From assembly GCA_903916665.1 (NCBI GenBank), contig CAIWXP010000030.1, positions 1 through 7,039 of the forward strand: a stretch of DNA of 7,039 nucleotides, written 5' to 3'. Below, one piece after another: positions 987 through 7,039 of this stretch (positions are counted from its first letter, which is position 1; every line of letters begins with the position of its first letter). The notes under the pieces are model-generated. The model had not been told where the DNA came from, did not search any database, and was given only the letters and a program-made list of their open reading frames with translations. The translations under genes were made by a program, and so were the position numbers. This stretch comes from Candidatus Iainarchaeum sp. GTDB lineage: Archaea > Iainarchaeota > Iainarchaeia > Iainarchaeales > 0-14-0-20-30-16.

Positions 987-1547
987 TTACTCTGGAATTT
1001 GTTGTATTCTAAATATTGCGTAATTCATATCAATAATATCACAATCTGCAATTGTCTGTGCACCAGTTTTCCAACTTTCAACAGTATTATCAAAATCTTC
1101 TTTTGTAAAGTCGTTACAATTATGTCCTGATGTTGACCAGGCACAATTTGATGTTGGTGTTATTATATTATCTCCAGTTTCAGCAGGTCCCTTAGTTAAT
1201 AATCTTGCCATTCCATCGGCAAACCAAAATTCTTGTGTTACTCCATTTCCATAATCTTTATAACAATGAGTTACATTTTTATCATTTGAATTTACATTTT
1301 TTGTTGAACTATCTTGACCATTAGTTTGTAAATTAGTTTGATCATTTGTAGTTGTTGTTGTATTAACATTACTTGTATCCGTAGAATCATTTTCTGTAAT
1401 GTGATTATAATCATTTATATCCTGATTTTGTAAATTAGGGTTTGGTGCATTGAAATTAATATTTTGTTTATTATTAGAAACACAACCAGATAATATTAAC
1501 ATAAATGTTAATGCAAATACAATACTAAAAATACTAATATACTTCAT
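987..1547 (-). CDS. Secreted lipoprotein of unknown function (lipobox signal peptide, N/T/Q-rich linker, 4-Cys C-terminal domain)
   Basis: ATG start. N-terminus MKYISIFSIVFALTFMLILSGC has a hydrophobic core plus an L-S-G-C lipobox. A low-complexity N/T/Q/D-rich segment of about 70 aa follows, then a globular tail of about 95 aa with 4 Cys (HCY, NCAW, HNCN, ADCD). The start lies 4 nt after the upstream gene's stop, with a GTGAT SD-like sequence 3 nt upstream. Confidence 0.7.
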   Translation of the reverse strand: MKYISIFSIVFALTFMLILSGCVSNNKQNINFNAPNPNLQNQDINDYNHITENDSTDTSNVNTTTTTNDQTNLQTNGQDSSTKNVNSNDKNVTHCYKDYGNGVTQEFWFADGMARLLTKGPAETGDNIITPTSNCAWSTSGHNCNDFTKEDFDNTVESWKTGAQTIADCDIIDMNYAIFRIQQIPE

Positions 1548-1551
1548 TTAA

Positions 1552-2367
1552 TCACAACCCCTTCAAATTATTTTTTAATTCTTTTATTTCGTTTTTAAAT
1601 AATTCAATTTCTATTTTATTTAATTTAATATTTACCGGATTAAGCATTTTTCCTTTTTGCACCTTAAATGGAATAGATATTGATAAGGTTCCAATTTTAT
1701 AACATAATAATAATTTATTCTTTTGATTTGAATTTAATTTTTTAAAGAATTTAAAAAATACCAATCCTACAAATTTAGATGGTATTCCATTAGCTCTAAC
1801 AAATTTTAAAAGTGTTAAATCTACTTTCTTTTGAAGTTTTTTATAATTCAATTTCGATTTTAAATTTAACAAAGGAATTGCTTTTCCGTGTAGACCTATA
1901 CAGGTAACTTTTTTGTTAAATTCTTTTGAGAATCTTTTTGCATCTAATTCCATTCCAAAACCAATTATTGTTTTATCCTTTATTTTTTTTTGTAAATAAT
2001 TAGTTATTTCATCTATAGGATTGGTAACAACAATTATTTTGGTTTGTTTATTTAGTGTATTTAAAAAAGAAATATATTCTTTAATTTTCTTTATATTAGA
2101 TTTTAATTCTATATGTCTAACATCAAAATTATTTGTTTTGATTTTTGCAATATTAATACGTTTTTTTGAGCTAATTGTTGAAAATGTAATTATAACATAA
2201 TCAAAATTTGTGTTTTTAAGTTTATTTAAAAATTTAATTTTTTTGTTATCCCTAACATTTTTAATAAACGGATCAAATATGAATATGGTCTTTACATAGC
2301 TTAATTTAACAAGATTTTTAACTATTTCTTTACCTGTGTTTCCATATCCAATTATTAAAATATTCAT
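1552..2367 (-). CDS. Short, divergent LDH/MDH-family NAD(P)-dependent 2-hydroxyacid dehydrogenase
   Basis: N-terminal Rossmann motif ILIIGYGNTG with FIFD at the end of beta-2. VVTNPIDEITNY matches the family signature V(I/V)TNPVD. GFGMELDAKRF matches G.G..LDS.RF (Asp168/Arg171 equivalents). IGLHGKAIPLL matches IGEHGDS.VPL (catalytic His). It is 271 aa versus about 310 for typical members, and the substrate loop is expanded and rewritten. Confidence 0.65.
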   Translation of the reverse strand: MNILIIGYGNTGKEIVKNLVKLSYVKTIFIFDPFIKNVRDNKKIKFLNKLKNTNFDYVIITFSTISSKKRINIAKIKTNNFDVRHIELKSNIKKIKEYISFLNTLNKQTKIIVVTNPIDEITNYLQKKIKDKTIIGFGMELDAKRFSKEFNKKVTCIGLHGKAIPLLNLKSKLNYKKLQKKVDLTLLKFVRANGIPSKFVGLVFFKFFKKLNSNQKNKLLLCYKIGTLSISIPFKVQKGKMLNPVNIKLNKIEIELFKNEIKELKNNLKGL

Positions 2368-2420: not shown

Positions 2421-2460
2421 AAAATGAAAAATAAAAAAAGAAGTAGGTATTAAAACCTAC
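2421..2460 (-). terminator. Hairpin plus oligo-U terminator downstream of asnS
   Basis: On the minus strand, 13 nt after the asnS TAA, the sequence reads GTAGGT-TTTAAT-ACCTAC (6-bp perfect stem, 2443..2460). It is followed directly by TTCTTTTTTTATTTTTCATTTT (2421..2442). This fits both an intrinsic-terminator shape and archaeal oligo-T termination. Confidence 0.55.
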
Positions 2461-2473
2461 ATTTAATTTTGTT

Positions 2474-3760
2474 TTAAGGATAAAATCTATTTGGTGTTCT
2501 AGGGAATGCAATTGCATCTTTAATTGTGTCAATACCAGTAACCCATTTAACAACTCTTTCTAAGCCCATACCAAAACCTGCGTGAGGAACAGAACCGTAT
2601 TTTCTAGTGTCTAAATAAAATCCATAGTTCTTAGGGTCTTCACCTTGGGCTTTTAATCTTGCAATTATAGAATCGATGTTTTCTTCTCTTTCTGAACCAC
2701 CTATTATTTCTCCACAACCCTCCGGTGCTAAGAAATCAGAACCCAAAACAACCTCTGGTCTACCGGGTGCTTCTTTCATATAAAATGCCTTTACTATTTT
2801 TGGATAGTGTGTTACAATAACAGGAGTATCATAAAGAGCAACTAATTTTTCCTCTTCCAAAGTTCTTAGGTCTTTTCCCCATTCAACTTCAAAATCACAT
2901 TTATTTTTTAATAGGTCCAAAGCTTTGTCGTAGGTAATTCTTGGAAATTCTTTTTGAATAGTTGGCAATAATTTAGAAGTATCTCTTTCCATAACGTTTT
3001 CCAAATCTTCTTTGTGGTCTTCTAAAACTCTTTTAACAACATGTTTTACTAAACCTTCTGCGCAGGAAATCATTTGATCAAAGTTATACCATGCCATTTC
3101 TGCTTCAATCATCCAGAATTCTGTTAGATGTCTTGAAGTCAAAGATTTTTCTGCTCTAAAAGTAGGAGAAACGGTGTAAATTTTTTCCAAAGAGAAAATT
3201 CCTGCTTCTGCGGGCAATTGCCAGGTTTGTGTTAGGAACATTTTTTGGTCAAAATATTTTACTTCAAATAATTCTGAACCTCCTTCTGCCTGTGTACTTT
3301 GTAAAATAGGAGATTGAAATTCATAGAATCCATCTGCATCAAAATATTCATGTATTGCTTTTATTGCAGTTGCTCTAACTTTTAATGTTGTTGTTAATTT
3401 TCTACTTCTTAACCATAGATGTCTAACATCTGCTAAAAATTCTTTTGAATAATCTTTTTGTATTGGAAAATCTTCGCCTATGTGCACAATTTCTAATTTA
3501 GTTCCTTGTAATTCTAAACCACCCGGTGCCTTAGGTTCTTCTTTTAATTTTCCATGTACTATTAAAGAGCTTTCTGATTTTAGTTTATCTGCATCATTAA
3601 AGTGGGGAGAAGTTGCATCAAAAACTATTTGTATAATACCATAGGAGTCTCTCATTACAATGAAAACCTTATCTTTCATTTTTCTTATTCTGTAGACCCA
3701 ACCTTTGATTTCATATTCTTTGCCAATTTCTCTATCTTCGAATATTTTTTGTATGTACAT
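2474..3760 (-). CDS. asnS: Asparaginyl-tRNA synthetase, archaeal type (class IIb)
   Basis: 428 aa, ATG start, TAA stop. N-terminal OB-fold anticodon-binding region (IKGWVYRIRKMKDKVFIVMRDSYGIIQIVF). AsnRS-diagnostic motif 2 FRAEKSLTSRHLTEFWMIEAEMAW. Also LAPEGCGEIIGGSEREE, motif 3 GFGMGLERVVKWVTG and the C-terminal FPRTPNRFYP characteristic of AsnRS rather than AspRS. Confidence 0.92.
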   Translation of the reverse strand: MYIQKIFEDREIGKEYEIKGWVYRIRKMKDKVFIVMRDSYGIIQIVFDATSPHFNDADKLKSESSLIVHGKLKEEPKAPGGLELQGTKLEIVHIGEDFPIQKDYSKEFLADVRHLWLRSRKLTTTLKVRATAIKAIHEYFDADGFYEFQSPILQSTQAEGGSELFEVKYFDQKMFLTQTWQLPAEAGIFSLEKIYTVSPTFRAEKSLTSRHLTEFWMIEAEMAWYNFDQMISCAEGLVKHVVKRVLEDHKEDLENVMERDTSKLLPTIQKEFPRITYDKALDLLKNKCDFEVEWGKDLRTLEEEKLVALYDTPVIVTHYPKIVKAFYMKEAPGRPEVVLGSDFLAPEGCGEIIGGSEREENIDSIIARLKAQGEDPKNYGFYLDTRKYGSVPHAGFGMGLERVVKWVTGIDTIKDAIAFPRTPNRFYP

Positions 3761-3765
3761 GTTTT

Positions 3766-3771
3766 CCCCCC
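3766..3771 (-). promoter_or_regulatory. Shine-Dalgarno-like G6 tract for asnS
   Basis: The minus strand reads TAAGGGGGGAAAAC-ATG. The purine/G tract ends 5 nt before the asnS start codon. Confidence 0.5.
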
Positions 3772-3792
3772 TTAGTACATATTATACTAGTG

Positions 3793-3816
3793 TTCTCTTT
3801 AAATAGTTTAAGAGAA
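3793..3816 (-). other. Inverted repeat in the tRNA-Asn 3' trailer, overlapping a TTTAAA TATA-like element upstream of asnS
   Basis: TTCTCTT (3793..3799) pairs with AAGAGAA (3810..3816), and AAA (3801..3803) pairs with TTT (3807..3809), giving a 1-nt bulge and a 3-nt loop. The repeat begins 1 nt after the tRNA discriminator base. The stem is AU-rich with only 2 G-C pairs, so it is weak. Confidence 0.35.
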
Positions 3817-3817
3817 G

Positions 3818-3889
3818 CGTCCCGTGCAGGATTCGAACCTGCGACCTCTCGATTAACAGTCGAACGCACCACCGCTGTGCTAACGGGAC
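3818..3889 (-). tRNA. tRNA-Asn (anticodon GUU), no encoded CCA, no intron
   Basis: The reverse complement reads GTCCCGT-TA-GCAC-AGCGGTG-GTGC-G-TTCGA-CTGTTAA-TCGAG-AGGTC-GCAGG-TTCGAAT-CCTGC-ACGGGAC-G. It has a perfect 7-bp acceptor stem, a 4-bp D stem with GG in the loop, a 5-bp anticodon stem (one T-G pair), a loop C-T-GTT-A-A, a 5-nt variable loop, a 5-bp T stem with a TTCGAAT loop, and discriminator G. Confidence 0.92.
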
Positions 3890-3910
3890 AGAAAAAGTCG
3901 AACAAATGAG

Positions 3911-3918
3911 CAATTATT
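3911..3918 (-). promoter_or_regulatory. Candidate TATA-like box for tRNA-Asn
   Basis: The minus strand reads CGGAAATAATTG, with AAATAATT at -29 to -22 relative to the mature tRNA 5' end. This is the expected archaeal TATA position if the leader is short. A weak AT-rich match in AT-rich DNA. Confidence 0.3.
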
Positions 3919-4035
3919 TCCGATTATTGTCTAGAGCAGATTTTGAAAAAGAATAGATTTTTGTTGCCTTCAATTTTCTAACCATAATAATCTCTCACTA
4001 AATAATAATTGCCCCTTTGTTTTTATAAATGTTTT

Positions 4036-4938
4036 CTAGACCTCTACTCTTTTTCCTGGGATTCTTTTGAACAATTGTACTTCTCCCACGTGTTTCAAAC
4101 CACAAACAAATCTTGTTAATCTTTCAATTCCAAATCCTGCTCCAGCAGTAGGTTTTAATTTTCCTGCTTTTGCTAATTTAATATAATATTCATATTTTTT
4201 TTGATCTAATTTATGATCTTTAATTTTCTTCATTAATATTTTATATTCGTGGTCTCTTTCTCCTCCTGATAGTGCTTCTCCAAATCCTTCTGGATAAACT
4301 AAATCATAGTTAAAATATTCGCCTGATTTTTTAGGATCGCTTTTATCATAGAATTCTCTTTTATGACTTATTGCCCAAAATGGAATTTTATAATATTTAG
4401 ATGCTTTTAATTCCCAATATTCCCCAAATTTTTCAATCAATTCCCGCGTGTGTAATTTGGGAAATGGTAATTTCATTTCAGGTAAAACTCTTTTTAATAT
4501 TTTTAGTTCTTTTGATTTTGTTTTTTTCAAATGAATAAATAATTTTGAATAATATTCTTCCATTAATTCAAATACATCTGTCATTTTCGCATCTTTAATT
4601 TCAAAATCTAATTGTGTAAATTCAAATAAATGTTTTCCACTCTTCATTCTTTTTGGGTGTTCTAATCTTATGTTCGGAGATAAAATAAATATTTTGTCTA
4701 ACCCTTTTGATATTGCAATTTGTTTGTGTAAAATCATAGATTGCATTAATTGTAGCTTTTGACCACAATATTCTATTTCTCCAGTTTTAATTACTGAACT
4801 ATTTGGATCGGGTCCCAAAGGATCTGTAATTGGGGATAACATCACGGGTAATAATTGTGTAAATCCTTTATCTTGAAAATAATCAACACCAAATCTTAAT
4901 ATTTCACTTTCTATTCCTAATATTTCTTTTTCATGCAT
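4036..4938 (-). CDS. asnA: AsnRS-related asparagine synthetase (archaeal AsnA-type aspartate-ammonia ligase); class II catalytic core without anticodon-binding domain
   Basis: 300 aa, ATG start, TAG stop, strong SD. All three class II motifs are present: LLPVMLSPITDPL (motif 1), RLEHPKRMKSGKHLFEFTQLDFEI (motif 2, parallel to asnS FRAEKS..RHLTEFWMIEAEM) and GAGFGIERLTRFVCG (motif 3). YPEGFGEALSGGERD parallels asnS APEGCGEIIGGSERE. The protein begins where the AsnRS catalytic domain begins (about residue 120 of asnS). Length and motifs match the Pyrococcus AsnRS paralogue shown to make asparagine. Confidence 0.78.
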   Translation of the reverse strand: MHEKEILGIESEILRFGVDYFQDKGFTQLLPVMLSPITDPLGPDPNSSVIKTGEIEYCGQKLQLMQSMILHKQIAISKGLDKIFILSPNIRLEHPKRMKSGKHLFEFTQLDFEIKDAKMTDVFELMEEYYSKLFIHLKKTKSKELKILKRVLPEMKLPFPKLHTRELIEKFGEYWELKASKYYKIPFWAISHKREFYDKSDPKKSGEYFNYDLVYPEGFGEALSGGERDHEYKILMKKIKDHKLDQKKYEYYIKLAKAGKLKPTAGAGFGIERLTRFVCGLKHVGEVQLFKRIPGKRVEV

Positions 4939-4944
4939 TTTATC

Positions 4945-4951
4945 TCACCTC
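4945..4951 (-). promoter_or_regulatory. Shine-Dalgarno site (GAGGTGA) for the asnA-like gene
   Basis: The minus strand reads ATAGAGGTGAGATAAA-ATG. GAGGTGA is complementary to the conserved 16S rRNA 3' end (UCACCUC), with a 6-nt spacer. Confidence 0.6.
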
Positions 4952-5024
4952 TATTACTATTTGTTTTAAACTAGTTTATTAATACTTTTTCAATAATATT
5001 GTATATTTTATGAAAAAAGAAAGG

Positions 5025-5032
5025 TATTTATA
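5025..5032 (+). promoter_or_regulatory. TATA-box-like element (TATTTATA) for the Lrp/AsnC gene; implies a leaderless mRNA
   Basis: TATTTATA is preceded by the purine-rich AAAAAGAAAGG (BRE-like). Its centre is about 28 nt upstream of the A of the ATG at 5057, and there is no SD between it and the ATG. Confidence 0.4.
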
Positions 5033-5038
5033 CTACTT

Positions 5039-5057
5039 TATTGTAAATTTTACAATA
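5039..5057. promoter_or_regulatory. Perfect 19-bp palindrome, candidate Lrp/AsnC operator (autoregulation site)
   Basis: TATTGTAAA-T-TTTACAATA has 9-bp perfect arms around a central T at 5048. It lies between the TATA-like box and the start codon, and its last base is the A of the ATG. Confidence 0.45.
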
Positions 5058-5512
5058 TGGCCAAAGAAATTGATAGTCTGGACAACCAAATACTAGATTT
5101 GTTGCAAAAAGATTCTAAAATCAAGTTGCATGTATTAGAAAAAAAGTTAGGTGTTCCTGCATCTACAATACATTTTAGACTACAAAAATTAGAATCGCAG
5201 GGATATTTTAAATATTCAATTGATAAAAATTATAAAAAATTAGGTTATAATATTAAATCAATAGTTATAGTTTACATAAATCCAAAGGATTTAAGACTAA
5301 TTAAAAAAACCCAAAGTGATTTGGCAAAAGCTATTTTAAAAATTAATGGTGTTGAAAGTGTTGATATAATAACTGGCGAAGGTGATTTGTTAGTTGTTTT
5401 GAGAGCAAAAACCATTGAAGAATTAAATAAAATGGTTTTGGAACAGATACAATTAATAGACGGAATTAAAAATACAAGAACAGTGGTTGTTTTGGAAGAA
5501 CATAGAAAATAA
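5057..5512 (+). CDS. Lrp/AsnC-family transcriptional regulator
   Basis: 151 aa. N-terminal winged HTH LDNQILDLLQKDSKIKLHVLEKKLGVPASTIHFRLQKLESQGY. C-terminal RAM/AsnC-type effector domain (IVIVYINPKD...GVESVDIITGEGDLLVVLRAKTIEELNKMVLEQIQLIDGIKNTRTVVVLEE). The size is typical of the family. Confidence 0.9.
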   Translation: MAKEIDSLDNQILDLLQKDSKIKLHVLEKKLGVPASTIHFRLQKLESQGYFKYSIDKNYKKLGYNIKSIVIVYINPKDLRLIKKTQSDLAKAILKINGVESVDIITGEGDLLVVLRAKTIEELNKMVLEQIQLIDGIKNTRTVVVLEEHRK

Positions 5513-6191: not shown

Positions 6192-6653
6192 TTAATATAA
6201 TTTTCCTTTTTTATTTTCCCATTCTTTAAATGCAATTAGACATTCGTTCTTATCAATTTGTTTTTTTGTAAATTGTTTTTCTTTTTCTTTACCTGATAAA
6301 ATATCGTAAATTTCTTTATCGTCAAAACCTATTTTTGCAGCATCTTTTCTACTTGCCGAATAATACACTTTTTTTATTCTTGCCCAATGAATTGCAGCAA
6401 AGCACATTGGACAGGGTTCGCAAGTAGTATATAATTCACAGTCAGTTAATTTTTTATTTTTTATTTTTTTTGTTGCTTTTCTTATGGCAGTTATTTCTGC
6501 GTGTGCTGTTGGATCATTAGTTTTGTAAACCATATTATGCGCACGGGCAATTATTTTTCCTTTGCAAACAATTATTGCGCCAAATGGTCCACCATCTTTT
6601 TTATCAACGCCTAATAAACTTTCTTTTAATGCTTCTGCCATGAATTTGTTCAT
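6192..6653 (-). CDS. guaD: Guanine deaminase, cytidine-deaminase fold (GuaD type)
   Basis: GGPFGAIIV, NDPTAHAEITAIRKA (zinc His / catalytic Glu), CEPCPMCFAAIHWARIKKVYY (zinc Cys pair), DAAKIGFDD and the C-terminal F..W.N.K...Y tail closely parallel Bacillus subtilis GuaD. I place the start at the ATG at 6651..6653 (MNKFMAEAL...). The GTG at 6660..6662 used by the ORF track lies inside a GTGAT SD-like sequence 4 nt upstream of that ATG. Confidence 0.8.
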   Translation of the reverse strand: MNKFMAEALKESLLGVDKKDGGPFGAIIVCKGKIIARAHNMVYKTNDPTAHAEITAIRKATKKIKNKKLTDCELYTTCEPCPMCFAAIHWARIKKVYYSASRKDAAKIGFDDKEIYDILSGKEKEKQFTKKQIDKNECLIAFKEWENKKGKLY

Positions 6654-6658
6654 AAATA

Positions 6659-7039
6659 TCACTTTAAATCCAATGGTGTTCTAACTTTCCAACCATCAAT
6701 ATTAAATCCACCCATTTTATTTAATGCGTAATTTGTTAATTTTCTAAATGTAGTTATTTTTTCTTTATTTGTTTTTGAGTCTAAGCAAGATAAAAATATA
6801 TTTAAGAATTTTTTATCAGAATATTCTTTTAACACATATTTATTTCTTGCATCAGTAGTTAATAATTCATATATTTTATGTGATTTATATTTTGTTTCTC
6901 CAATGAATTGTCCATAGTCGTTAAAAAGTTCTATTAATTTATTATAATAAGAAATGTCAAAAGATTTTGAATTTGATTCGTAAAGTTCTTCAAGTTTTTC
7001 TAAATGTTCATACAAAAAGTATTTATTAATTTCAATTGA
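6659..7039 (-). CDS. Hypothetical protein, 5'-partial (reading frame runs off the right edge of the window)
   Basis: The start at 7015 in the ORF track is a TTG, and the same frame stays open through 7039 (..SIEINKYFLYEHLEKLEEL..), so the gene probably starts outside the window. TGA stop at 6659..6661, tightly packed against guaD. No recognisable motifs. Confidence 0.5.
   Translation of the reverse strand, partial: SIEINKYFLYEHLEKLEELYESNSKSFDISYYNKLIELFNDYGQFIGETKYKSHKIYELLTTDARNKYVLKEYSDKKFLNIFLSCLDSKTNKEKITTFRKLTNYALNKMGGFNIDGWKVRTPLDLK

Follow-up and report, generated by a model that had tools for sequence, protein, structure and literature searches.

A presumed asparagine synthetase gene (asnA), a tRNA-Asn gene and a presumed asparaginyl-tRNA synthetase gene (asnS) follow one another on the minus strand of a 7,039-nt stretch of archaeal DNA (hereinafter, the window), with an Lrp/AsnC-family regulator gene divergent from asnA, and the question raised by this locus is whether it is a single regulated operon, a pair of adjoining expression units or a fortuitous assemblage. 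The four parts named in an earlier note on this DNA, namely, synthetase, tRNA-Asn, AsnRS and divergent regulator, are all present and were correctly identified, as shown by profile searches, ARAGORN and Rfam (Table). The window, however, is better described as two adjoining modules than as one proven operon, that is, the divergent regulator-asnA pair and a unit that consists of a candidate promoter, a small ORF, tRNA-Asn and asnS. The earlier note mentions neither the operator nor the small ORF, nor the structures predicted between tRNA and asnS. The host is a DPANN archaeon, Micrarchaeota/Iainarchaeota-like, with a tiny genome.

Table. Features of the asparagine locus, in positions of the window
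Feature	Position	Strand	Remarks
Lrp/AsnC-family (feast/famine) regulator	5057..5512	+	151 aa; divergent from asnA
O1, perfect 17-bp palindrome ATTGTAAA-A-TTTACAAT	5040..5056	.	abuts regulator ATG; read directly; candidate autoregulatory operator
Regulator TATA-like box (TATAAATA / TATTTATA)	5025..5032	.	about 25-32 nt 5' of regulator ATG; conserved block in alignment A3; putative promoter
O2, second degenerate operator-like site (TTCATAAAATATACAAT)	4998..5014	.	T-run before site; just upstream of asnA TATA-like box; putative function
asnA TATA-like box (TATTAATAAA)	4975..4984	-	conserved A/T block before SD and ATG in alignment A3; putative
asnA SD, AGGTGA	4945..4950	-	from sequence
Archaeal-type asparagine synthetase A (asnA)	4036..4938	-	300 aa
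TATA-like box TTTATAAA	4022..4029	-	6 nt past asnA stop; candidate promoter of sORF-tRNA-asnS unit
Small ORF, 23 codons (MVRKLKATKIYSFSKSALDNNRK*)	3914..3985	-	SD-like GTGAGAG at 3992..3998; candidate leader peptide
tRNA-Asn(GUU)	3818..3889	-	Rfam and ARAGORN
Hairpin (TTCTCTT...AAGAGAA)	3793..3816	-	begins 2 nt past tRNA discriminator; MFE fold
Stem-loop TATGTAC-[SD GGGGGG]-aTGTACATA	3752..3781	-	encloses asnS Shine-Dalgarno and start codon; MFE folds
AsnRS (asnS)	2474..3760	-	428 aa
Terminator-like hairpin (GTAGGT...ACCTAC) and T-rich run	2434..2460	-	after asnS; consensus scan

Against NF005054, a curated NCBIfam equivalog (archaeal-type asparagine synthetase A), the asnA product scores 382 bits, above the cutoff of 309; it can be aligned along its whole length with the solved enzyme of Pyrococcus abyssi (3P8T, E = 8.5e-78; 3P8T/1NNH, E ~1e-77) and has 2,328 homologues, with numerous invariant columns in an alignment of 18 homologues. 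The synthetase is thus of the conserved AsnA type that had been proposed, an AS-AR, or paralogue of the AsnRS catalytic core, and the same three lines of evidence rule out a decayed aminoacyl-tRNA synthetase fragment. The asnS product exceeds the cutoffs of both AsnRS equivalogs (NF003037, 495.7 bits, cutoff 414; TIGR00457, 439.6 bits, cutoff 342.6) and contains the tRNA_anti-codon and tRNA-synt_2 domains of Pfam. The tRNA gene, found by ARAGORN at 3817..3889 and by Rfam (RF00005, 68.9 bits) at 3818..3889, carries the anticodon GTT and the discriminator G73, and does not encode CCA. The regulator contains the Pfam domains HTH_AsnC-type (1.3e-08) and AsnC_trans_reg (3.3e-13); its PDB relatives are archaeal FFRPs and also E. 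coli AsnC (2CG4, 3e-12), and it falls under the AsnC equivalog cutoff (67 bits vs 227).

The regulator and asnA form a divergent pair in 48 of 80 asnA loci, from archaea and some bacteria, and operator-like palindromes are conserved, which bears out the suggestion that this layout mirrors the asnC-asnA locus of E. coli. There, AsnC is an autorepressor that also activates asnA, and the activation is abolished by L-asparagine (PMC4482635). Common to the two systems are the divergence of an Lrp/AsnC-family regulator from an ammonia-dependent asparagine synthetase and the arrangement of an operator over the regulator's own promoter and of another site ahead of the synthetase promoter, both sites being predicted in our case. 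Unlike in E. coli, the synthetase is an archaeal AS-AR related to 3P8T rather than the bacterial AsnA, the candidate promoters are of the archaeal TATA type, and the regulator, with putative DNA binding and asparagine as a putative effector, has archaeal FFRPs as its nearest relatives. O1 is kept at the equivalent position, as a TTG[GT]A-W5-T[AC]CAA-type palindrome, in loci of Micrarchaeota whose AsnA is as little as ~45% identical, and the block that includes O2 (TTTTTT-G.AA.....TCAAT) is conserved in 11 aligned intergenic regions. Indeed, the start codon, palindrome, TATA, T-run with the second site, TATA, SD and ATG are colinear blocks in 11 loci. The distance of the TATA-like box from the regulator ATG would imply a leaderless mRNA, with O1 located between TATA and the transcription start. 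The host DNA is AT-rich (25-30% GC), so that TATA-like strings are frequent; a scan for bacterial-type promoters yielded 21 against 16.1 expected, that is, no enrichment.

The second module, which is limited to a narrow clade, starts with the TATA-like box past the asnA stop, which is conserved in the window and in L084, L091 and L101. In L091, where asnA is lacking upstream, the box sits between divergent genes, so that a promoter would have to be there; the DNA homology between this locus and the window extends across asnS, the tRNA and all of the spacer, and ends where the asnA stop would be. Downstream of the tRNA, L089, L092 and L101 have a hairpin in the equivalent place that differs in sequence, whereas the L091 stem is nearly that of the window. 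The G-rich SD before asnS, 56-247 nt 3' of the tRNA, is conserved in all A-type loci (those in which asnS follows tRNA-Asn, as in the window). Both arms of the stem that encloses it and the start codon are present in all five sORF-tRNA-asnS loci and absent from all five other asnS loci; these arms are invariant, hence no covariation, and the z-scores of this stem and of the hairpin are modest (-0.7 to -4.6). The terminator-like site after asnS is the only one on the minus strand between 5600 and 2300.

The interpretation that we favor, with moderate confidence, is that of two adjoining asparagine-related expression units. The regulator would bind O1, which separates the TATA box of its gene from the start codon, probably repressing itself, and would also bind the second site, probably controlling asnA as AsnC does in E. 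coli. Transcription of the second unit would start from the TATA box past the asnA stop, cover the small ORF, tRNA-Asn, hairpin and asnS, and end at the hairpin and T-run 3' of asnS; RNase P and RNase Z would free the tRNA, and a protective hairpin would then form the start of the leftover asnS mRNA, with SD and AUG held in a weak stem-loop. With asnA alongside, asparagine synthesis, acceptor tRNA and charging enzyme would make up one heritable block, and transcription from asnA could conceivably read through into the second unit, by which the block may be co-expressed. Operons that join tRNAs to mRNAs are exemplified by thrU-tyrU-glyT-thrT-tufB of E. coli. As in such operons, the tRNA would be transcribed with a downstream gene of the translation apparatus and then released by RNase P/Z; the differences are that the gene downstream encodes the synthetase for this tRNA and that co-transcription is suggested here only by spacing and SD conservation. 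Dicistronic tRNA-mRNA transcripts, organellar and plant, are documented (for example, PMC8166872 and PMC1920247).

A further reading, tentative and an addition to the two-unit explanation rather than a replacement, is that the small ORF encodes an asparagine-sensing leader peptide, the translation of which, chiefly of Asn codons near its end, would report the supply of charged tRNA-Asn and tune how far transcription reads through, or how the downstream tRNA-Asn/asnA/asnS RNA is processed or stabilized. The ORF precedes 7/7 asn-linked tRNA-Asn genes vs 0/5 near-identical genes without asnS, all five in tRNA arrays (Fisher p = 0.0013; conservative p = 0.0048). Its start, stop and length are conserved in five sequences, with 23 codons in the A-type and 24-25 in the B-type (loci in which asnA lies between tRNA-Asn and asnS; up to 27 codons from an upstream in-frame ATG), the indels of the latter comprise whole codons, and (G)GTGA lies 5-9 nt ahead of the ATG in every version. 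Synonymous changes are in excess in frame in codons 10-23 (synonymous to nonsynonymous events 9:8 vs 2:14 and 4:13 out of frame), whereas no sign of coding is seen in the N-terminal half (3:14 vs 3:13 and 2:13 in the other frames). In test windows picked after inspection of the data, the B-type tails SNHNNN* (four Asn in the last six codons, P = 4.5e-4) and SNRHNSNN* (four in the last eight, P = 1.9e-3) are Asn-rich against a background of 5.7-7.7%, and A-type ORFs have only one or two Asn codons near the end (P = 0.05), although Asn21 is invariant among them. In L103, the ORF start takes the place of the regulator-controlled asnA start.

Such a peptide would be an archaeal counterpart of the leader peptides that control operons for aminoacyl-tRNA synthetases or biosynthesis in E. 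coli, pheM-pheST and the his, trp and thr attenuators, with which it shares a short SD-led ORF, enriched in cognate codons near its end, directly 5' of synthesis or charging genes. Unlike in pheM-pheST, however, Asn enrichment is clear in the B-type loci only, and neither alternative pairing of leader and tRNA in six loci nor a consensus RNA structure was found, so that no classical terminator/antiterminator switch is visible. Moreover, the stop codon falls within the AAATAATT box, and so the AAT-rich strings may be tRNA promoter elements instead. To our knowledge, a leader-peptide mechanism is not established in archaea, and the literature searched held no report of such attenuation. T-boxes, which are bacterial, were not detected either, Rfam at E<=1 returning the tRNA alone in the window; Lactobacillus bulgaricus reportedly has an Asn-specific asnS-asnA T-box operon. 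In Firmicutes, T-box operons often have asnS in second place (PMC2494555), and another Asn-specific T-box operon is aspS2-gatCAB-asnB of Clostridium acetobutylicum (cited in PMC4206432). These operons likewise co-locate genes for asparagine synthesis and Asn-tRNA formation, under the control of a signal that reports tRNA-Asn charging, but sense the tRNA in trans, whereas here the tRNA gene itself is within the cluster.

The earlier note had suggested one transcriptional unit or regulon, and a possible precursor from 4938 to 2474; a single regulator-controlled transcript that would begin at the asnA promoter (about 4975), continue through the tRNA and cover asnS down to 2474, with the TATA-like box and small ORF incidental, now appears doubtful. 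The genes are all co-oriented, neither an oligo-T nor a hairpin terminator separates the asnA stop (4036) from the TATA-like box at 4029, and the B-type relatives look like one regulator-controlled operon. However, asnA is separated from the tRNA by a conserved TATA-like box and a small ORF with its own SD, and the promoter-sORF-tRNA-asnS ensemble is kept in L091, L092 and L101 without asnA and regulator upstream (and, without asnA, in L089/L090), apparently as an autonomous unit, which is why the window looks like two adjacent ones. In addition, the conserved T5 run within the small ORF (TCTTTTTCA) or the second T5 just 5' of the tRNA could halt archaeal read-through.

The gene order is not a one-off: relatives share asnA->tRNA-Asn (L084/L085), tRNA-Asn->asnS (L089-L092, L101) or the full set of components in permuted order, regulator<->small ORF-tRNA-Asn-asnA-(lysE)-asnS (L082, L083, L103), in which the same parts would be fused into one regulator-controlled operon. 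The three-way linkage is limited to a narrow clade. It is improbable, in our estimate, that this is neutral adjacency, whereby tRNA-Asn landed beside asnS once in a small clade and tRNA recombination later shuffled asnA and the regulator, all with their own promoters and no coupling. The tRNA-asnS linkage is patchy, being absent from L094, L102 and L104 at 72-80% AsnRS identity, and hence dispensable and possibly inherited neutrally, and no tRNA-Asn was found within 6 kb of asnA in 80 asnA loci of other species. Partial copies of the tRNA 3' end lie 3' of the tRNA in L092 and L089 and suggest tRNA-associated rearrangement, able to scramble neighborhoods without selection; 3'-end copies or repeats occur also in L101. 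Furthermore, the spacer between tRNA and asnS is variable (56 to 247 nt), and its 158-247 nt in L089, L092 and L101 leave room for a separate asnS promoter. Against neutrality, a set of three or four Asn-specific components recurs in three orders (A, B and B'), that of the window and two others in related genomes, which implies at least two independent rearrangements that united Asn genes rather than random ones. The 21-24 nt between tRNA end and asnA in L082, L083 and L103, SD included, leave no space for an archaeal promoter and point to co-transcription of tRNA and mRNA; the small ORF follows asn linkage, not the tRNA per se; and the window contains no tRNA-fragment scar, nor does the tRNA pattern match viral contigs. 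Grouping by chance is unlikely because related genomes repeat it in shuffled orders; the 80 asnA loci of other species, none with tRNA-Asn close by, and the five array-type tRNA-Asn genes serve as controls.

The closest parallel to the B-type order sORF-tRNA-Asn-asnA-asnS has the same logic: in pylTSBCD, a co-oriented, uninterrupted archaeal cluster, the tRNA comes first, along with its cognate aminoacyl-tRNA synthetase and the amino-acid biosynthesis genes (PMC3941956). The asparagine locus differs in that the amino acid is canonical and the tRNA reads a standard sense codon, so that no code expansion is involved, and in that no homology links its proteins to those of the Pyl system, its order varies among relatives, and it additionally carries a regulator and a small ORF.

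The reading that the sequence best supports is that of two adjoining units, namely, asnA, the gene for an archaeal-type asparagine synthetase A (AS-AR), which would be controlled by the divergent Lrp/AsnC-family regulator, and an apparently autonomous transcript in which a 23-codon small ORF and tRNA-Asn precede asnS, the AsnRS gene. Side by side in the window, the two units would bring synthesis, acceptor and ligase together as a single block, and in sister genomes the same parts seem to have been fused into one regulator-controlled operon. The single transcription unit that the earlier note had proposed is not favoured for the window because the small ORF-tRNA-asnS unit appears autonomous. 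The genes on which that proposal was built are all present, as judged by curated models, ARAGORN, Rfam and Pfam, on a contig that is complete at 7,039 bp and has a GC content of ~28%.

Features of the window, with coordinates on the forward strand
Feature	Coordinates	Strand	Remarks
186-aa ORF	987..1547	-	
271-aa ORF	1552..2367	-	
428-aa ORF, AsnRS	2474..3760	-	NF003037, TIGR00457 equivalogs
tRNA-Asn(GTT)	3818..3889	-	ARAGORN, Rfam
Small ORF, 23 codons, MVRKLKATKIYSFSKSALDNNRK and stop	3914..3985	-	SD-like GTGAGAG upstream
TTTATAAA TATA-like box, candidate promoter	4022..4029	-	6 nt after asnA stop
300-aa ORF, archaeal-type asparagine synthetase A	4036..4938	-	NF005054 equivalog
Second TATA-like box, asnA side	4975..4984		followed by SD AGGTGA and asnA ATG
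Degenerate second operator-like site	4998..5014		preceded by T-run
TATA-like box, regulator side	5025..5032		
Perfect 17-bp palindrome ATTGTAAA-A-TTTACAAT, candidate operator	5040..5056		abuts regulator ATG
151-aa ORF, Lrp/AsnC-family regulator	5057..5512	+	Pfam PF13404, PF01037; divergent from asnA
156-aa CDA/TadA-like zinc deaminase	6192..6662	-	4-nt overlap with upstream 118-aa ORF
118-aa ORF	6659..7015	-	

The 300-aa protein is, on its sequence, an archaeal-type asparagine synthetase A. It scored 382 bits against NF005054, the NCBIfam model of this enzyme (cutoff 309), and at most 110 bits against AsnRS and AspRS models; the Pfam search identified tRNA-synt_2 alone (residues 4-291), that is, the class II catalytic core only, and did not find the OB-fold tRNA_anti-codon domain. 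The solved Pyrococcus abyssi enzyme (3P8T) aligns with residues 7-295 (E = 8.5e-78), and the class II motifs 2 (SPNIRLE) and 3 (GAGFGIERL) are retained. Because homologues number 2,328 and the 18 sampled share dozens of invariant columns, the protein is no decaying fragment; the equivalog score, the invariant columns and the full-length match to 3P8T rule out a remnant of an aminoacyl-tRNA synthetase, in agreement with the earlier assignment to the AsnA type. The 428-aa protein exceeded the cutoffs of both AsnRS equivalog models, NF003037 (495.7 bits, cutoff 414) and TIGR00457 (439.6 bits, cutoff 342.6), fell below that of the non-discriminating AspRS model NF003483 (332.7, cutoff 353) and has the AsnRS domain layout in Pfam, with an N-terminal OB domain (tRNA_anti-codon) and the class IIb core (tRNA-synt_2). 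The tRNA folds into a cloverleaf with a GUU anticodon (ARAGORN), matches the Rfam model over its full length (68.9 bits) and has a discriminator G and a 5-nt variable loop; CCA is not encoded.

The regulator combines an N-terminal AsnC-type HTH domain (PF13404, 35 bits, cutoff 27) with a C-terminal RAM/AsnC ligand-binding domain (PF01037, 49.8 bits, cutoff 25), and full-length PDB members of the Lrp/AsnC (feast/famine) family match it, as befits a member of that family. It scored 67.1 bits against the AsnC orthologue model NF008384 (cutoff 227) and is therefore a family member rather than an AsnC orthologue, so that the analogy to AsnC rests on gene context; the best orthologue model was LysM (71.8, cutoff 180), and every named orthologue model stayed below its cutoff. 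The nearest named homologues of AsnA (Candidatus Micrarchaeota, ~60%) and of AsnRS ('Candidatus ainarchaeum sp.', 72%) belong to DPANN archaea. AsnA goes together with AsnRS instead of GatCAB, and among archaea GatCAB is confined to genomes that lack AsnRS (PMC2330236). The direct route to Asn-tRNA therefore depends on a separate supply of free Asn, as the earlier note had argued.

In a survey of 80 loci from different species, each encoding an AsnA-type homologue, we located AsnRS, Lrp-type regulators and all tRNAs per locus. The regulator and asnA form a divergent pair in 48 of the 80, and the suggested likeness to the asnC-asnA layout of E. coli holds; the taxa include Micrarchaeota, Thermoplasmata, Undinarchaeota, Woesearchaeota, Asgard archaea and Nanopusillus, and also Pontibacter and Clostridium. 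The full cluster is rare, because asnS directly follows asnA in just four of these loci (L006, L049, L056, L078) and tRNA-Asn lies within 6 kb of asnA in none of the 80.

Among the closest relatives of the window (L-numbers denote the compared loci), the linkage of the Asn-specific parts extends well beyond one genome, to L082-L085, L089-L092, L101 and L103. Type A comprises the window and L084/L085 (AsnA 79% identical), in which the divergent regulator-asnA pair is followed by the conserved spacer and the same tRNA-Asn, 30 nt into which the L084/L085 contigs stop. In type A0, which includes L091, L092 and L089/L090 (AsnRS 81-86% identical) and L101 (62%), tRNA-Asn lies upstream of asnS in the same direction, and neither asnA nor the regulator was found nearby. 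In type B (L082 and L083, AsnA 76-79%), the regulator diverges from tRNA-Asn-asnA-lysE-asnS, and in type B' (L103, which is NCBI GCA_030154545.1, AsnA 78%, AsnRS 73%), from tRNA-Asn-asnA-asnS. Thus, a tRNA, its cognate aminoacyl-tRNA synthetase and a biosynthetic gene are contiguous and co-oriented in the window, L084/L085, L082, L083 and L103. At least three orders of the same parts inside one narrow clade are hard to explain by chance. The DNA homology between L091 and the window (82%) spans asnS, the tRNA and the whole 146-nt spacer and stops where the asnA stop sits. The linkage with tRNA-Asn is clearly dispensable: no tRNA was found upstream of asnS in L094, L102 and L104 (AsnRS identity 72-80%), and five metagenome contigs have a near-identical tRNA-Asn as the first gene of a tRNA array (Asn-Val-Ser-Lys) that lacks asnS. 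In L103, the start codon of the small ORF occupies the exact position of the asnA start in other genomes. A viral or mobile-element origin was rejected for the window, given that the tRNA pattern had no matches in viral contigs and that the window lacks partial tRNA copies; relatives adjoin dnaK/grpE/dnaJ and ribosomal protein genes. Unlike the window, L092 and L089 do contain tRNA-fragment scars.

In the intergenic region between the regulator and asnA, the palindrome, TATA-like boxes, T-run, second site and SD are colinear and conserved in eleven aligned loci, with an invariant TTG...CAA palindrome core. Given the position of the TATA-like box on the regulator side, the regulator mRNA would be leaderless, with the palindrome between this box and the transcription start, a layout to be expected of an Lrp-type factor that represses its own gene and acts on the divergent promoter as well. 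The palindrome is also compatible with TTGYAWWWWWTRCAA, the consensus of Ss-LrpB. In E. coli, AsnC is an autorepressor and an activator of asnA, the activation being lost when L-asparagine is present (PMC4482635); the candidate autoregulatory layout of the window parallels this arrangement.

The second unit begins with the candidate promoter that follows asnA. Both the TTTATAAA box and the small ORF are kept in L084, L091 and L101; in L092, the small ORF is kept and the upstream region differs. Because the upstream gene in L091 is divergent, this stretch must contain a promoter there. In the window, the small-ORF stop is separated from tRNA-Asn by 24 nt. In type-B loci, only 21-24 nt, with an SD within the gap, separate the tRNA end from the asnA ATG, too short a distance for an archaeal TATA/BRE promoter, so we straightforwardly infer co-transcription of tRNA and mRNA in these loci; by extension, co-transcription of tRNA-Asn and asnS across the 56-nt spacer with its conserved SD is plausible in the window. 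RNase P and RNase Z would process the small ORF-tRNA-Asn-asnS transcript. On the minus strand between 5600 and 2300, a single site resembles a terminator, namely, the hairpin with a T-run after asnS.

Every tRNA-asnS locus folds two structures 3' of the tRNA, a hairpin and a stem around the SD and start codon. The hairpin begins 1-3 nt past the discriminator, and its stem sequence is distinct in L089, L092 and L101 and nearly that of the window in L091. The second stem, TATGTAC/GTACATA, encloses the G-rich SD and the asnS start codon; both arms are present in all five loci with small ORF, tRNA and asnS and in none of the five other asnS loci. The individual z-scores of both structures are modest, and the second stem has no covariation. 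An Rfam scan at E<=1 detected neither a T-box nor any other known RNA family; besides the tRNA, it gave one chance plastid match. The scan of the window for bacterial sigma-70 promoters (21 sites, 16.1 expected) is uninformative for an archaeal host. Strict-distance, leaderless tRNA promoters are known in Nanoarchaeum; such a promoter is not supported here because the AAATAATT box at the small-ORF stop and the first nucleotide of the tRNA are 11-26 nt apart, depending on the locus, a spacing too variable for the box to fix +1.

The start, stop and length of the small ORF are constant in five sequences despite flanking indels; the type-B versions vary by whole-codon indels (MILRQDITHIKIYFLKLISNHNNN in L103 and MITKTIHAKKLLLLKLISNRHNSNN in L082, each followed by a stop), and (G)GTGA is found 5-9 nt ahead of the ATG in every version. 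Over codons 10-23, the ratio of synonymous to nonsynonymous events is 9:8 in frame, compared to 2:14 and 4:13 in the shifted frames. The small ORF is found upstream of all seven asn-linked tRNA-Asn genes, whereas none of the five genes located in tRNA arrays has one (Fisher p = 0.0013; conservative p = 0.0048). Given the conserved frame, the SD, the synonymous excess and the link to asn loci, the small ORF is a credible translated element tied to asn genes.

We further hypothesize that the small ORF might act as an Asn sensor. Asn clustering is strong in the type-B tails, where four of the last 6-8 codons encode Asn (P ~5e-4 to 2e-3; background 5.7-7.7%), and weak in the type-A tails, with one or two among the last five (P = 0.05), in test windows that were picked post hoc. 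A classical attenuator was rejected: cofolds of leader and tRNA from six loci yielded zero pairs between small ORF and tRNA, the joint MFE being the sum of the separate folds. RNAalifold on seven leaders found no consensus structure (0 consensus pairs), and neither analysis yielded mutually exclusive terminator and antiterminator structures at the small ORF; single-sequence leader folds do pair the SD region of the small ORF with the surroundings of the stop codon, a pairing that RNAalifold does not support. The most far-reaching proposal, which we consider rather unlikely, is that this DPANN clade has an asparagine operon, tRNA-Asn-(asnA)-(lysE)-asnS, in which tRNA-Asn comes first among the structural genes, behind a translated leader of 23-25 codons; at the Asn codons of this leader the ribosome would sense charged tRNA-Asn, and the output of tRNA, synthetase and ligase would be tuned jointly. 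If true, a canonical amino acid would here have a self-contained cassette under feedback control, and leader-peptide-type control would be described for the first time in Archaea.

To our knowledge, the gene for an aminoacyl-tRNA synthetase is hardly ever linked to both the gene for its tRNA and the pathway of the amino acid. The pyrrolysine cassette is the textbook exception, and its linkage is put down to horizontal transfer of new coding capacity. A cassette for an ordinary amino acid in strongly reduced genomes suggests that linkage is selectable for co-expression or co-inheritance. The pieces are of known kinds, that is, asnC-asnA-type control, tRNA-mRNA operons and a tRNA/synthetase/biosynthesis cluster as in pylTSBCD (PMC3941956), which the Asn cluster resembles in organisation only, its proteins not being homologous to the Pyl proteins; Asn-specific T-box operons, with asnS as the downstream gene (PMC2494555), are comparable. 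What is new is the combination of tRNA, ligase and synthesis for a canonical amino acid in archaea, recurring in permuted form, along with the small ORF that accompanies it and the wide occurrence of the regulator-AS-AR pair and its candidate operator; within the incomplete coverage of the literature searched, no prior description of any of these was found. Little-studied archaea thus offer candidates for an Lrp-family operator kept across phyla, for tRNA-mRNA co-transcripts and for an Asn-sensing leader ORF.

Several further observations pertain to the compared loci. The position taken by the small ORF and tRNA in the window is occupied in L082 (3704..4294) and L083 (974..1564) by lysE, a gene for a 196-aa LysE-family amino-acid exporter between asnA and asnS; because the lysE start overlaps the asnA stop (ATGA), the exporter is apparently translationally coupled to asparagine synthesis. 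The tRNA-asnS spacers of L092 (4754..5000), L089 (31..195) and L101 (5655..5812) are enlarged to 158-247 nt and include incomplete copies of the tRNA 3' end (3 mismatches over 22 nt in L092); in the L092 spacer, a ~70-nt unit that forms a 12-bp hairpin (AAACATTTTTGC/GCAAAAAGGTTT) is also repeated in tandem about three times. These fragments and repeats could have been left by integration or could belong to a repeat element. The L101 AsnRS (5813..7114), although preceded by a leader and tRNA nearly identical to those of the window, drops from 70-75% identity to the window protein over the first ~120 residues to 53-60% through the catalytic domain, which may reflect recombination within asnS. 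The archaeal-type AsnA of the bacterial loci L067-L077, L081 (Pontibacter), L066/L070/L072 (Clostridium) and L059 (Bacteroidales), at 43-47% identity, is likewise accompanied by a divergent Lrp/AsnC regulator, which suggests transfer of the pair between domains as one unit. A woesearchaeal locus (L023, 6001..9401) encodes two full tandem AsnA-type genes followed by an apparent third copy that is frameshifted or split.

Of the remaining ORFs in the window, the 271-aa one, with 18-21% GC compared to ~30-35% for asnS, retains no more of malate/lactate dehydrogenase than the N-terminal Rossmann part (52.8 bits, cutoff 283) and may encode a dehydrogenase that is degenerating or has diverged strongly. 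The 186-aa protein has a signal/lipobox-like sequence (…LSGC) at its N-terminus and a low-complexity region rich in Asn, Thr and Gln; no family match was found for it, and a weak homologue is encoded in L089. A bacterial-type TadA is unexpected in an archaeon; the CDA/TadA-like deaminase and the 118-aa ORF are kept as a pair beside the asnS region in L091 and L102 (~70-74% and 69% identity).
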